Shown piece after piece: positions 22,469-27,774 of a stretch of DNA of 31,994 nucleotides. Origin of the DNA: an uncultured Dehalococcoidales bacterium (GTDB lineage Bacteria; Chloroflexota; Dehalococcoidia; Dehalococcoidales; UBA2162); NCBI GenBank assembly GCA_964403625.1, contig CAYOHA010000001.1, positions 1-31,994 on the forward strand, in the 5' to 3' direction. Position 1 is the stretch's first letter. The number at the start of each line of letters is the position of its first letter. The notes beneath the pieces are model-generated. The model was not told the origin of the DNA, did not search any database, and saw only the letters and a list, made by a program, of their open reading frames with translations. The position numbers were made by a program, and so were the translations under genes.

Positions 22469-22508
22469 AATATAATACTAAACAAGTAATTAGTCAATAC
22501 ATTGACTA
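22469..22508 (-). promoter_or_regulatory. Promoter of the molybdoenzyme operon overlapped by a palindromic candidate MarR operator
   Basis: Minus strand TTGACT (22497-22492)-17-TATATT (22474-22469). Palindrome tagtcaat-ac-attgacta at 22491-22508. Confidence 0.65.
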
Positions 22509-22562
22509 TTATATCTTGATAGTCGATAAATATACAGGAATTGATTGACAATAATTTAATCG

Positions 22563-23129
22563 ATGAGATACTATTGCTTCATGAATACACCCCCAAAAAC
22601 AGGTGCTAATGATTCTCGCCATCTCGCCACCGTTCAGTATATCGATAATACGGGGAGGTTCCCGCGGGTTAGATTATTCTTCAGGCTGCTTACCTTTGCT
22701 GATACTCTTAATAAATATGCCGGCATAGAAGTAAGGGAAAAAGGTGATAACCGTACCGGACTAGCTGTTTTGCAGATTTTACTCAAATATCCGGATGGTA
22801 TCTCTCAGCAAGAGATAGCCAAGCAAACGGGTAGAACCAAGCAGGCAATTGTGATGGCGATTAACAAACTTGAGCAGCAAAACTACCTTCAAAGACGTTC
22901 GAATAGCTACGATAGAAGGATGAATTCCATTATTATTACCCAAGAGGGGATTGATCATCTCAACGAAGTGTTCCCCCACACTCTGGCCATGTGTGATAGT
23001 GTTTTATCATCTTTTAGTGATGAAGAAATCGATCAATTCATCACCCTCAGTGGAAAATTGACGAAACGGCTGTGGCAGCAGATCGAAGCTGAATCATCGG
23101 AATTTGAACAGCGTGTAGAAGAGGAATAA
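22563..23129 (+). CDS. MarR-family winged-helix regulator (start may be 22581 or later)
   Basis: 'GISQQEIAKQTGRTKQAIVMAINKLEQQNYLQR....DRR...I.IT..G'. Divergent from the molybdoenzyme operon. Confidence 0.9.
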   Translation: MRYYCFMNTPPKTGANDSRHLATVQYIDNTGRFPRVRLFFRLLTFADTLNKYAGIEVREKGDNRTGLAVLQILLKYPDGISQQEIAKQTGRTKQAIVMAINKLEQQNYLQRRSNSYDRRMNSIIITQEGIDHLNEVFPHTLAMCDSVLSSFSDEEIDQFITLSGKLTKRLWQQIEAESSEFEQRVEEE

Positions 23130-24044
23130 CCGAATATTCCCGTGCCCACCATCATGCCGGACTGTGCTTAAGATGAAGGGAAAAGGGGCAGGGTTCAGGC
23201 AGGTGGTGCAGGTTATATCAATTGTCTCCCCTTCTAGAAGTAGGCCTATATCTGATGCGCTGAGATCAACAGAGAGTCCGCGGCCGCACCTGTCGCAAGC
23301 GAAACGCCATGTACCTTGTAGTTCCTTCAGCGAATCCTTAAGGCCAGCCGCAAGTGCCCTTGCCTTGGAGCCGGCGTATTCTTTCCACTGCCCATCTTTC
23401 ATTAGTTCGAGGCGTTTTTCGGCCCCTGCCTGTACTCTCCTCTCAAATTCAGCGGTCACGCGGTGGTTTACCAGTGCATTAACCTCCTTAAGGTAGTAGT
23501 TCTTGAACCAGTCTGGCCACTGATCCCTAGCACCCAACATGGCATCTGCAACTTGCCTTGCGCTGGAATCAATGACCTTTGCTATCTCAGGGGGCCACTC
23601 AGAACCGTTAAGTACTTGTATCAGGCTCTCGTGAACCAGAGTCGGCATTCGGCTTCGCATATCCTTTTCTAGTGCTGCCAGGCATTCTTTTACCCTTCTC
23701 TCAATCTCGCCTTCCTCGGCATGGAGGAATTGGTCTCTTATCTCCTCCAAGGAGAGGTCGCCGCTGTCAGGAAAATTCACTTTAAATTCCTTTAGCGACA
23801 ACAGCTCCTTCTGGGCGTCATCGAGCCTACTGGCCAGCTCCCTAACCTCGCCCTCGCTTTTCGTGAGGCGTGAAGAAAGCTCGTTGTTCGTAGAAACTTC
23901 GCTTCCCAGTTCGGCTATCTTTTTCTTCAGCTGGGCTACTTCTGTTGCCAGACAATCCCTTTCCCGCTTGACCCGAGAGTAACGCCTCAGTGCCTCGAGT
24001 TCCTTTACGTACTTTTCCAGAACTTTAAATTCGTCCTTTATCAC
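23094..24044 (-). CDS. Hypothetical coiled-coil protein with C-terminal CxxC..CxxC zinc ribbon; tail probably junction-derived
   Basis: Heptad-rich N-terminus, CDRC...CTTC, and GGAGGTGA SD before GTG 24044. The 3' end runs 36 bp antisense into marR across the repeat at 23138-23165. Confidence 0.7.
   Translation of the reverse strand: MIKDEFKVLEKYVKELEALRRYSRVKRERDCLATEVAQLKKKIAELGSEVSTNNELSSRLTKSEGEVRELASRLDDAQKELLSLKEFKVNFPDSGDLSLEEIRDQFLHAEEGEIERRVKECLAALEKDMRSRMPTLVHESLIQVLNGSEWPPEIAKVIDSSARQVADAMLGARDQWPDWFKNYYLKEVNALVNHRVTAEFERRVQAGAEKRLELMKDGQWKEYAGSKARALAAGLKDSLKELQGTWRFACDRCGRGLSVDLSASDIGLLLEGETIDITCTTCLNPAPFPFILSTVRHDGGHGNIRLFLFYTLFKFR
23138..23165 (+). repeat. Imperfect direct repeat of the tRNA-Val 3' end/att junction (26973-27000)
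   Basis: 20/28 ungapped identities. Also shares the exact 9-mer gcccaccat (23144-23152 and 26982-26990) on a diagonal shifted by 3 nt. Confidence 0.5.
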
Positions 24045-25722
24045 TACTCACCTCCCCGACGAGCATCAGCAACGCCCAGATGAAGACATCTGCAAGCTCC
24101 ACCTCGGTGTATTCACCAATACTGTAGTATTTCTTGGTAATCTCCCGGGGCGGTCTCAGCTTCGGGTTGAGATTCTTACGGCACCAGGCGAGGCCTATCA
24201 TCAGATATTGCACCACGACCTGGAGACTTAAATCAGCCACCAGGCTGGAGATGGCCTCTTCGCTCAGGGGCAGTTTGACAAAATAGCGGGTGAACTTTAG
24301 CTCCTCTTCCAATTTACCCATCTCCGCCTGCGTATCACCCCACTTCCTGATGTCATCGTGGAGGCCACGACACAGCTTCTTTACCTCAGCCACTGCTGAA
24401 CTCCTCATGCTGTTGATCTGCTTAACTCCTGAATCCCTGAGGGAAGTGATTGACTGCCTTACTTTAGCCAGCTCACCCTGAAGCTCTCTAAGTGCTTGCA
24501 CCTTTTCCCCTAGCTCTTGTGCTACCCTGTCGAGTTCAGCCCTTCTTGCTGTTAGTGCCTTCTCAACACTGCTGAAATCCGCGACTACTTCTTCGAATGA
24601 TTCAGGAGCAACCCCAGCCGCGGTAAGCATTCTCTCATAGGAGACTATTGTCGGCGGTAAAACGCCCTTACGTCGCAGAGATTTTATCGCCGCTATTCCT
24701 TCAGCGATCTGTTCTGAGGTCAGCCCCAGCTTTTGAGCGAGCCCGGCTAGCGATTCCCTCTCTACCGTCAGGCTCTTGACTTCTTCGGAACGTTTTCCCT
24801 TGGTCGCCTCCATTCCAATGACGGCCTCATAGGTTTCGAGATATCCAAAGAATCTATTGACAGCCTCCCCTGTACCGTGCTTCTGCGCTATCTCACTCAG
24901 GCGGTCTCTTAGCCGGTTTAATTGATCCCGTGGAAAACCAATCTCATCCAGACCCCTTAGCGTCTCAGTCTTGTCGGCAACTTGCTTTTCCAGAGTCATC
25001 ATTCTTTCCTGAAGCTGGCTGGTTTCCTCTTTGAGCTTGCTCTTCTCGGTTTCAAGTTGAGCCATCTCCTCCTGGCACTGCTTGACTTGCTCCCCCAACT
25101 CTTGGATGCGATCCTCCTGCTCCTTTTCTTTCACTGCCATGGCATTCAGCCTGCCTTGAAGCCTGACAGACTCTGCTTCAAGGCGGTGGTTTGCTTGAGT
25201 GAGTTCCTCTCCCCTTCCGTGAAGTTTGGTCTCCTCAGCTCTCAGCTCTGCTAGCTCTACCCTCAGCCTCTCTAGCTCGGCAGAGGAGGTCCTGAGGCTT
25301 TCTAAGGTCTGCTCATAGCTAAGACCTTCTTTTTCCAACTTTGACAGTTTGCTTGCCGCCTGGATGATCTGGCTGCGGGAAAATTCTTCCTCGGGAACTG
25401 CTCGGCACATTCTTATCCATGATTCAAGATACGCTGGTTCTACACCCAGCCCGATGAGTTTCTTTAACAAGATGAAGAGGGAAGCAGCTTCAATGATAGT
25501 AATGCCTGCCTTGCGGAGACCAACCGTCAGTTCTCTGAGCTCGTTCACCAAATCAGTCACCTGTTCAAACTGGGGGAATTCTCCGACTCTGAGCGCCTCT
25601 ACTACTGCTGCCACACTTCCTTTTGCTACGCCTGTTTTCTCGGCGATATCATCGTAGGAAAAACCTTCGAAGTAGAGTTTTACCACCTCAAGCTTTCTGT
25701 CTAGAGTTATCTCCCTGCTCAC
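24025..25722 (-). CDS. Hypothetical protein: N-terminal HTH plus long coiled coil
   Basis: 'RKLEVVKLYFEGFSYDDIAEKTGVAKGSV' HTH and an extended Glu/Lys/Leu heptad region. AGGAGG lies 8 nt before GTG 25722 (the ORF track starts at 25740). Confidence 0.75.
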   Translation of the reverse strand: MSREITLDRKLEVVKLYFEGFSYDDIAEKTGVAKGSVAAVVEALRVGEFPQFEQVTDLVNELRELTVGLRKAGITIIEAASLFILLKKLIGLGVEPAYLESWIRMCRAVPEEEFSRSQIIQAASKLSKLEKEGLSYEQTLESLRTSSAELERLRVELAELRAEETKLHGRGEELTQANHRLEAESVRLQGRLNAMAVKEKEQEDRIQELGEQVKQCQEEMAQLETEKSKLKEETSQLQERMMTLEKQVADKTETLRGLDEIGFPRDQLNRLRDRLSEIAQKHGTGEAVNRFFGYLETYEAVIGMEATKGKRSEEVKSLTVERESLAGLAQKLGLTSEQIAEGIAAIKSLRRKGVLPPTIVSYERMLTAAGVAPESFEEVVADFSSVEKALTARRAELDRVAQELGEKVQALRELQGELAKVRQSITSLRDSGVKQINSMRSSAVAEVKKLCRGLHDDIRKWGDTQAEMGKLEEELKFTRYFVKLPLSEEAISSLVADLSLQVVVQYLMIGLAWCRKNLNPKLRPPREITKKYYSIGEYTEVELADVFIWALLMLVGEVSSDKGRI

Positions 25723-25816
25723 TGTTCTTGCCTCCTTCACCGCCTACGGTTTTACTCGGTCTGCTAGTCAAGCTAGCTGCCTAACTGAATGAACAACTGA
25801 ACAAAGTTTTGAACAT

Positions 25817-26752
25817 CTAGGTACTCCTAAGTTCTATCGTATTAGTCTCTTTCTCAATTACGCTATTATTTCGCTTCCCCCTTCTATACGCCAGTTTGAA
25901 GTCCATATTGTCTGCCGGAGAATAGCGACGGTGTGCCTCTTGAATACCACTTTGAGCCATGTTTACATAGATTCGAAGGACATCTAGTGTGGAATGCCCC
26001 ATCATCCTTTGGAGACTGAAGACATCGCCGCCGTTTCTTAAAAACCTGACGGCAGCAGAATGACGTAAAGTATGAGGTGAGCACCTGACTCCTTCTATCC
26101 CAGCTTTCCTGCCGTAATAGGTCATAATCTTCTCCGCCCTATCTTTGGTTAGCGGCCTACCATCCTTGGTGAGGAAGAGGAAGTCGTATTTAGCCATCGC
26201 TGGTTCGGGACGGCATCGGTTAATGTAGCGCCAGAGGAGGCGCTGAACTTGCTTACCTATCGGAATAAGGCGCTCCTTATTACCTTTACCTACAACCTTC
26301 AGCATACCCTCATCCAACCAGAGATTGCCAAGCTTTAGATTACAGAGTTCAGATATCCTAAGGGCCGTATCAAGCAAGGTCAGAATGATGATATAGTCTC
26401 GGTATCCCTCAGCGGTTCTAGTATCTATGGCATTGAGTAACCCCTGGAACTGGGAGTCGGAGAAGGCAGGTATAACCTTTCCTGGTGGTCGTGGAATTTT
26501 CACTCGTTCAAAGGGGTTACACTCTATGATATTTTCGGAGACAAGCCATGATAAAAAGATCCTGAGACTGCGGAGGTAACAGTTAATGGTATACCCCGAA
26601 AGCCCTCTATCCTGGGTATGGTTGAAACGGTGGCCGGAGAAGCACATCTTCTGTTGTAGATAGAGGATGAATGCTCTAATCTGGTGCTGAGTAATCTGAG
26701 TTGCATCGGTGCTTATTCCCTGTGAAGCAAGGAAATCGAGAAAGTAATGCAC
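25817..26752 (-). CDS. Tyrosine recombinase/integrase (XerC/D-like fold); coding frame extends upstream without a canonical start
   Basis: Complete catalytic set: DTALRISEL (R), GKGNKER (K), HTLRH, MMGH, RIY (Y). SAM-like N-terminal domain. Confidence 0.92.
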   Translation of the reverse strand: MHYFLDFLASQGISTDATQITQHQIRAFILYLQQKMCFSGHRFNHTQDRGLSGYTINCYLRSLRIFLSWLVSENIIECNPFERVKIPRPPGKVIPAFSDSQFQGLLNAIDTRTAEGYRDYIIILTLLDTALRISELCNLKLGNLWLDEGMLKVVGKGNKERLIPIGKQVQRLLWRYINRCRPEPAMAKYDFLFLTKDGRPLTKDRAEKIMTYYGRKAGIEGVRCSPHTLRHSAAVRFLRNGGDVFSLQRMMGHSTLDVLRIYVNMAQSGIQEAHRRYSPADNMDFKLAYRRGKRNNSVIEKETNTIELRST

Positions 26753-26872
26753 GCTATTAGTGACAATAGCGATAGCATTAGGGCTCTTTCCTTCAGTAGC
26801 AGCACAAAGCTGATAGCCCTGAAGCAGGCCTCTTATGTCGGTGTAAAAATTTAACGAAGCAAGAGGTCTACC

Positions 26873-26901
26873 TTTACAAAGCTGATTTTTGGGGGTAAAA
26901 T
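26873..26901 (+). promoter_or_regulatory. Sigma70 promoter for tRNA-Val
   Basis: TTTACA-17-TAAAAT, ending 12 nt before the tRNA 5' end. Confidence 0.7.
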
Positions 26902-26913
26902 AGATATGATTTC

Positions 26914-26989
26914 GGGCGGTTAGCTCAGTGGTTGGAGCGCTTGCTTCACACGCAAGAGGTCACAGGTTCAAGTCCTGTACCGCCCACCA
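26914..26989 (+). tRNA. trnV: tRNA-Val(CAC), CCA encoded
   Basis: Acceptor stem GGGCGGT/ACCGCCC, D-arm GCTC/GAGC, anticodon stem CTTGC/GCAAG with loop TTCACAC, T-arm ACAGG-TTCAAGT-CCTGT, ACCA end. 76 nt. Confidence 0.97.
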
Positions 26990-27774
26990 TACCGTACAGT
27001 AGGCAGAACTCCCAATCCTTCTTCCTCCTGGTCGTCCGGAAGTATCGGAAACGTGTATTTAATTCGCCCCTCATTCCCCGTGACCTTGATTTCCTTTACG
27101 AAGCTCTTGATAAATGCTTTCCTTTCCAGCAGGTCGCTGGTATCGATGAACTGATGCAAATCTTCAACGTATTTTCGTACCACCTCCGGACTTACTAACT
27201 CAATCTTATGTTGAGACATAAGACCATCAAGTTCGGATTTCCGTGTTAGCAACCGGTCATGCTGCACTCTTAGCTCCTGCAGACGCGGTTTTAGCAAATG
27301 AAATTCGATATTACCGTTCTCAATGGCATTGTAAAGATTACCCAACCGCTGTTCTACTCTGCCAATCTCACTGATAATGGTATCCATCTCATCCCTGAAT
27401 GAGCTTGAAGCAGCGTCCATCTCCTCATTAATTAAGTCGACCAGTTCGGACAAGTTCCCCGGGGTGAGAATATGTTCCTTGATTTTCGAGATCACCAGCC
27501 GCTCGAATTTAACACTGTTGAGGTAAGGAGTAGAGCACGCCCCTGCTCCCTTCTTCGTCAATGAGCCGCAAATATAGTATGAATACTTACCGCTTTTAGC
27601 ATCCAGCCCTATCAGTGCCTTACCGCAACAGCCGCACCAGGTTAGACCACTCAACAGAAATCTACTGGTTGCCCGTCTCGGATGCTGCTTCTTCGGCGCC
27701 CGATCTCCCATAAGTTCTTGTGTTTTATTAAAGACCTCCTTGCTGATAAGTGCCGGAAATACGTTTTCAACTCT
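26968..27774 (-). pseudogene. Large serine recombinase, C-terminal remnant (end of recombinase domain, Zn ribbon, coiled coil); catalytic N-terminus missing
   Basis: RVENVFPALISKEVF..Q, then LLSGLTWCGCCG...YYICG....AC, then coiled coil. An in-frame TAA at 27777-27775 caps the 5' end. The stop codon lies in the tRNA T-loop. Confidence 0.85.

Follow-up and report, generated by a model that had tools for sequence, protein, structure and literature searches.

The window analysed here, a stretch of 31,994 nucleotides (nt) from an uncultured Dehalococcoidales bacterium (contig CAYOHA010000001.1 of assembly GCA_964403625.1, positions 1 to 31,994), carries two overlapping genes that we call A and B. 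Both lie on the minus strand, directly downstream of a tyrosine integrase gene that stands back to back with a tRNA-Val(CAC) gene. The arrangement is as given in the initial annotation: 76 nt separate the end of the integrase from A, whose stop overlaps the start of B by 20 nt. Since most A homologs are 563-565 amino acids (aa) long and begin at the position of GTG 25722 in the window, this codon is likely the true start of A, giving a product of 565 aa. The source assembly (2.7 Mb, 82% complete) has a single copy of each gene.

Word-based searches recovered 55 proteins like A and 98 like B, from sediment and subsurface metagenomes; almost all lack a name, the few names being Dehalococcoidales or Chloroflexi. 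In a full profile search the B family comprises 248 clusters at 50% identity, 159 of them at E <=1e-10; the B profile was not found in 400 other sampled genomes of the phylum, and no relative of A was found on viral contigs. Pairing was counted among 83 fetched loci, a locus being testable if it extended at least 300 nt beyond the 3' end of A. A and B are an obligate, translationally coupled pair: B directly follows A in all 42 testable loci, with start overlaps of 14-20 nt, and the pairing first noted in the window is thus consistent among homologs. More distant A-like proteins (A') likewise always have an overlapping partner, B', which is 160-220 aa long, lacks the zinc ribbon of B and often has a Gly-rich hydrophobic segment.

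The initial annotation took the pair for cargo. Instead, a conserved backbone operon (~7.5 kb, ~8 genes) of Dehalococcoidia integrative elements begins with A and B and carries a small tyrosine recombinase and a clamp-like gene of its own. A (563-571 aa; predicted helix-turn-helix (HTH) and coiled coils) and B (~317 aa; four-Cys zinc ribbon) are directly followed by C in 28 of the 30 loci with room for it, and then by D, E, F, G and H. C is akin to Xer-type tyrosine recombinases: its catalytic domain (Phage_integrase, E 1.4e-18) is nearest to archaeal XerA (PDB 4a8e, E 3e-13; NCBIfam XerA, E 4e-27). Unlike XerA, it is 225 aa long, lacks the N-terminal core-binding domain, contains an inserted zinc ribbon and reaches 7 copies per genome; it is present in 49 of 401 sampled genomes and is 57-73% identical across the class. 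D (170 aa) has no significant family, a faint PadR match under the cut-off (Pfam, E 0.04), no match in a profile search of PDB sequences, and helix-like motifs in its alignment; it may be winged-helix-like. F (380-400 aa) is DnaN-like, that is, beta-clamp-like (TIGR00663, E 2e-22; phrog_947, E 9e-35), and E (~245 aa), G (~100 aa) and H (~160 aa) match no family. PADLOC-DB 2.0 gives nothing for C-H. In the element of genome G310, an integrase, a small open reading frame (ORF) and genes A, B, C and D follow tRNA-Met in this order; next come a clamp-loader-like ATPase, a protein of 315 aa and a MarR gene, and then host genes. E was considered as a clamp loader and rejected, being unrelated to the clamp-loader-like protein of G310. 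In complete genomes C and D flank an ArdC-like gene (ArdcN + M78 peptidase + DUF192) within long same-strand gene rows, and C stands at the end of such rows (G116, G305, G055, G079 and others; loci L137-L148). The source assembly has one distant C homolog (37% identity) on another contig (G000:C122:6086-6718).

Table 1. Features of the A-B locus in the window, with the basis for each assignment.
Feature	Position	Strand	Description	Basis
Gene A	24025-25740	minus	571 aa from GTG 25740; HTH, two long coiled coils, C-terminal helical domain	ORF
Predicted HTH, A residues 12-51	25588-25707	minus	homeodomain-like / sigma region 4-like	Pfam matches; Sleeping Beauty PAI subdomain, E 0.005
Duplicated helical unit, copy 1, A residues 59-111	25408-25566	minus	contains LRKAGI, LIGLGV	hhalign
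Coiled coil 1 (first long helix), A residues 142-264	24949-25317	minus	pLDDT 78-90	AlphaFold2; coiled-coil family matches
Duplicated helical unit, copy 2, A residues 319-371	24628-24786	minus	contains AQKLGL, LRRKGV	hhalign
Coiled coil 2 (second long helix), A residues 379-487	24280-24606	minus		AlphaFold2
C-terminal domain, A residues 488-571	24028-24279	minus	in the half that co-varies with B	invariant columns RYF..LP, W..C, NPK.RPP, EYTEVEL.D
Gene B	23094-24044	minus	316 aa	ORF
Homologous part of B, codons 1-297	23154-24044	minus		98 homologs; AlphaFold2 model of intact relative P0057
Zinc ribbon cysteines CDRC...CTTC, B codons 250-282	23199-23297	minus		invariant in 64 sequences; beta hairpins in model
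Non-homologous B tail	23094-23153	minus	19 codons + stop	protein alignment, blastn end points, junction comparison
GCCCACCAT, copy of tRNA-Val 3' end	23144-23152	plus	abuts the break in B	exact 9-nt match to 26982-26990
Tyrosine integrase	25817-26752	minus	directly upstream of A	Pfam Phage_integrase, E 5e-36
tRNA-Val(CAC)	26914-26989	plus	back to back with the integrase	ARAGORN
Large serine recombinase, C-terminal fragment	26968-27711	minus	247 aa; zinc beta-ribbon and coiled coil	

Adjacency of homologs to tRNA-linked integrases, as in the window, proved frequent but not universal. Upstream sequence of 2 kb or more was available for 39 loci; in 24 of these a tyrosine integrase is encoded no more than 2.6 kb upstream of A, the integrases belonging to several lineages. 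The tRNAs adjoining cassettes are of five types (Val, Lys, Met, Thr and Glu/Gln). No attachment (att)-type direct repeats were found in L066, L077, L046, L089 or G310. Sister cassettes also occur in islands with serine recombinases (L036, L038), and a complete genome that lacks C, G098, has two A'-B' cassettes. Because of the varied integrases, the serine recombinase islands and this genome, we consider the pair tied to islands generally and not to one recombinase.

The same observations bear on whether A-B is a DNA-recognition or synapsis accessory of C, which, without a core-binding domain, would need partners. C consists of the catalytic domain alone, A offers a predicted HTH and B a zinc ribbon, and the adjacency A-B-C-D in the 28 loci mentioned above is matched in other variants by the order C-D-A'-B'. 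However, A'-B' occurs in G098 without C, so that A-B is not a dedicated partner of this recombinase, and also stands beside serine recombinases; C-D has no detectable A-like neighbour in many genomes; and D, with its faint PadR match and alignment motifs, is itself a candidate DNA-binding partner. We therefore regard an accessory role as quite unlikely.

In many relatives, which have tandem integrases (L046, L054, L063, L066, L068, L077, L095 and L122), the order is tRNA-Val, integrase 1, a 120-aa zinc-ribbon ORF, integrase 2 and A; a single integrase is found in the window, L072, L080 and L103. As window positions 25990-26989 match integrase 1 and positions 25817-26116 match the 3' end of integrase 2, the window integrase looks like a recombinant of such a pair. 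Beyond the tRNA lies the serine recombinase fragment, whose catalytic N-terminal part is missing and whose 3' end overlaps the 3' end of tRNA-Val, like DsiB of the Dehalococcoides ssrA islands.

A and B match no family in Pfam, NCBIfam, PADLOC, PHROG or PDB beyond HTH and coiled-coil noise, and B has no Pfam match at all, so the pair is uncharacterised, as first described. Walker A motifs, nuclease domains and transmembrane segments had not been seen in the sequence, and in agreement with this neither protein matches a P-loop, nuclease or transmembrane family (Pfam, NCBIfam, PADLOC); profile and fold searches gave no ATPase, nuclease or other enzymatic family. The exclusion of SMC, Lamassu and Wadjet systems also stands: matches to Rad50, SMC, JetC and LmuB are limited to the coiled coil of A (residues 110-480) and score 20-40 bits against cut-offs of 300-1087, and PADLOC-DB 2.0 links A-B to JetC, LmuB, PbeC and DruC through the coiled coil only. 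Against PDB sequences, the B profile finds coiled coils only and the A profile, apart from the Sleeping Beauty HTH listed in Table 1, does the same. Foldseek searches of PDB with A and B and a wider structure search with B returned generic coiled-coil or single-helix matches only, and the ESM Atlas returned unnamed clusters, many of them archaeal with HTH_23 (scores 0.78-0.91), which serve as leads only.

The N-terminal HTH proposed for A is probable. Residues 12-51 match Sigma70_r4_2 at E 1.7e-5 (24.8 bits, just under the 25.7-bit cut-off) and, more weakly, HTH_28 (19.9 bits) and HTH_23 (18.6 bits); several homologs carry PF13384, PF13518 or PF08281 in precomputed annotation; and AlphaFold2 places three short helices at residues 13-51. 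Most ESM Atlas look-alikes of A are HTH_23 proteins of Nitrososphaerota, and a 349-aa archaeal protein, encoded on the contig of an Archaeoglobus metagenome-assembled genome (L048) and on a metagenome contig (L111), is 31% identical to A residues 5-253. The N-terminal module of A may extend to archaeal elements.

A predicted HTH of the sigma70 region 4 / HTH_23 type on the first protein of an operon could also mean that A is an unusually long transcription regulator, with B as its modulator, controlling expression of the backbone; that we found no consensus promoter between the integrase and A in the window fits this weakly. Yet ~230 residues of predicted long helix, an internal repeat and an obligate ~317-aa partner exceed the needs of a repressor, and no operator-like repeats were identified. 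Such a regulator strikes us as very improbable.

The internal repeat consists of two blocks of ~53 residues, 59-111 and 319-371, which are a duplication according to hhalign comparison of alignment slices (P 3.6e-5, 32% identity, probability 71%). Four of the five short glycine-hydrophobic motifs listed in the initial annotation fall within these blocks. All five are present, at helix-loop-helix corners of the AlphaFold2 model, but they are unevenly conserved: the glycine is invariant or nearly so in LIGLGV (G99), LDEIGF (G268) and LRRKGV (G359), varies among homologs in AQKLGL, and lies outside the listed conserved columns in LRKAGI, where it is K77 that is invariant. The model of A is all-helical, with short helices up to residue 137, a helical middle between two long helices, and a helical C-terminal domain with many invariant residues. 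The two long helices, at 142-264 and 379-487 and ~110-120 residues each, correspond to the long heptad runs noticed earlier.

B was described as ending in CDRC/CTTC. The motifs are real, and C250, C253, C279 and C282 are invariant in 64 sequences, as is H297; the natural end of the protein, however, does not follow soon after CTTC, as relatives reach 317 aa and the window gene is cut after codon 297. The AlphaFold2 model of an intact relative, P0057, has a mean predicted local distance difference test score (pLDDT) of 86 and comprises a helix at residues 2-86, a hairpin, three helices forming a helical bundle and a beta-rich domain at 244-311, in which the strands at 244-261 and 275-302 reach a pLDDT of ~90. 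The two CxxC knuckles of this domain lie on beta hairpins and are conserved throughout the family, which makes it a predicted zinc ribbon, although no Pfam zinc-ribbon family matches it. Some much longer proteins, namely P0206 and P0218 (789-823 aa) and P0162 and P0163 (648-721 aa), end in the C-terminal part of B, with its WP.WF helices and zinc ribbon. Two of these begin with a winged-helix-like region and may contain a P-loop-like stretch, and two have long coiled coils after an HTH-like start; no Pfam family matches any of the four. They were considered as A-B fusions and rejected, their N-terminal parts not being detectably homologous to A (hhalign probability <10%).

Judged by its alignment with relatives, the window copy of A-B is a 3'-truncated, decayed remnant. 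Nucleotide homology of ~35 loci to the window stops at exactly 23154/23155 (blastn). Where B relatives share ~20 conserved residues after H297 (HKV.SL.L..LL.LY.G), the window has 19 unrelated ones, encoded by a tail that overlaps the 3' end of a convergent MarR gene; in the model of the intact relative, the lost residues form the strand and the helix that close the zinc-ribbon domain. The break is abutted by GCCCACCAT; the window contains this sequence at two places only, whereas 0.28 occurrences would be expected by chance. We interpret this copy of the tRNA end as a scar left by site-specific recombination or deletion; a pseudo-att site inside intact B was rejected, the intact sequence at the break being unlike the tRNA end. 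The MarR flank has no synteny in 40 relatives, and the window MarR is 23% identical to the MarR that ends the G310 element. Logan contigs from one run cover 22487-23166, that is, 12 nt past the junction, and contigs from runs X1 and X3 (public sediment and wetland metagenomes) start at 23158, match B up to this position and continue into sequence unlike the window. It therefore appears that the window-type junction coexists with B variants whose 3' end is different and probably intact. Decay of the element is recurrent, because two other copies are cut elsewhere, L102 shortly behind B and L124 at 93 nt within the following gene. Rearrangement among element copies also appears to be frequent: in L085 A is cut at residue 475 and joined straight to C, with no B, and in L055, L085 and L073 a piece of the clamp-like gene F lies in inverted orientation a short way upstream of A. 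As a dead remnant, the window copy should not be annotated as an intact system.

What the intact pair does can be approached through its modularity, which we examined in an all-against-all comparison of 19 cassettes (171 pairs). The N-terminal half of A is homologous in 140 of the 171 pairs, including the A' of complete Dehalococcoidia genomes, and the C-terminal halves of A are similar in all 49 pairs in which B resembles B. The C-terminal half of A is thus co-inherited with the type of B, which is indirect evidence that the two work together. Our favoured interpretation, held tentatively, is that A-B could be a nucleotide-independent DNA-binding scaffold or tether that serves the element, and not a recognised defence system. 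A would bind element DNA through its HTH, perhaps aided by the duplicated 53-residue unit, and self-associate through its two ~110-120-residue helices; its exchangeable C-terminal half would dock B. B would provide a second attachment, by way of the four-Cys zinc ribbon here and of the hydrophobic Gly-rich segment in sister cassettes. Such a tether could be of use in maintaining the excised form, in assembling recombination complexes or in transfer. It is doubtful, at a level well below this general reading, that A-B is a new ATP-independent modular DNA tether in which the constant half of A holds DNA while the swappable half and its partner choose the anchor, a zinc ribbon directing it to DNA or protein and a glycine-zipper segment to the membrane.

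Several observations weigh against the scaffold interpretation. While C and D keep 63-86% identity, A and B on the same backbones fall to 30-35%, a pattern typical of conflict or specificity genes, and chimeric cassettes (L100, L032, L041/L044) document module swapping in A-B. The 15 loci without an upstream integrase mostly have ordinary metabolic genes there, and the two cassettes of the C-less genome G098 count in the same direction. The model of A is of low quality (mean pLDDT 65, predicted template modelling score 0.27), and an SMC-like fold-back of its two helices was considered and rejected, as indels in one coiled coil have no counterpart in the other (P0054, P0040).

The divergence and the swapping would suit a conflict module on the element, that is, one for defence, exclusion or counter-defence, in which the N-terminal half of A senses or binds DNA and the C-terminal half with B is the effector (zinc ribbon, or possibly a membrane-active glycine-zipper). 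Besides fast divergence on slowly evolving backbones and the exchange of the C-terminal half of A together with B, this reading can draw on the Gly-rich hydrophobic segments of B' variants and on the ArdC-like anti-restriction gene found in the C-D slot of related elements. Yet the PADLOC matches are to coiled coils only; no TIR, Sir2, nuclease, NTPase or other effector domain was found in A-B; and the leading position in the backbone, kept across cassette types, suits a core function of the element better than accessory cargo. We hold a conflict module to be unlikely, and a role of A-B in defence appears less likely than service to the element as a DNA-binding scaffold.

Among known systems, the scaffold interpretation finds a partial parallel in KfrA of IncP plasmids, a plasmid maintenance accessory with an N-terminal DNA-binding domain and a long coiled-coil tail. 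Like KfrA, A is encoded by a backbone gene of a mobile element and combines a small, predicted N-terminal DNA-binding domain with very long coiled coil and no NTPase. What sets it apart is its pair of long helices, the 53-residue duplication, the conservation of its C-terminal domain and its obligate partner with a zinc ribbon, and KfrA_N (PF11740) is not among the Pfam matches of A at E up to 0.1. With SMC-type proteins (Rad50, MukB/JetC, LmuB) the pair shares long coiled coils, and Rad50 moreover has a CxxC zinc hook; but A-B has no ATPase head or Walker motifs, and its cysteines sit in the ribbon of a separate protein, not at a coiled-coil apex.

Reductive dehalogenase and catabolic genes travel among Dehalococcoidia on genomic islands. 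A modular tether, if that is what A-B is, could belong to the maintenance or transfer route of these islands. Cultivable relatives carry sister cassettes, which makes the function of the pair testable. The A-H genes are not described in the 2026 Dehalogenimonas pangenome paper. The nearest precedent is the integration module of the Dehalococcoides ssrA-specific islands, which comprises the serine recombinases DsiB and DsiA, a RecF-like protein, ParB and Mom; small RNA genes are the integration sites of these islands, and no transfer genes are known in them (McMurdie et al. 2011, PMC3146451). Like that module, A-H is a set of syntenic backbone genes beside the attachment site of Dehalococcoidia islands. 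None of the DsiB, DsiA, RecF-like, ParB or Mom families is represented in the A-H operon, which has A, B, a small tyrosine recombinase, D, E and a clamp-like protein instead; A, B, the tyrosine recombinase without a core-binding domain, D and the clamp-like protein are a previously undescribed island backbone.

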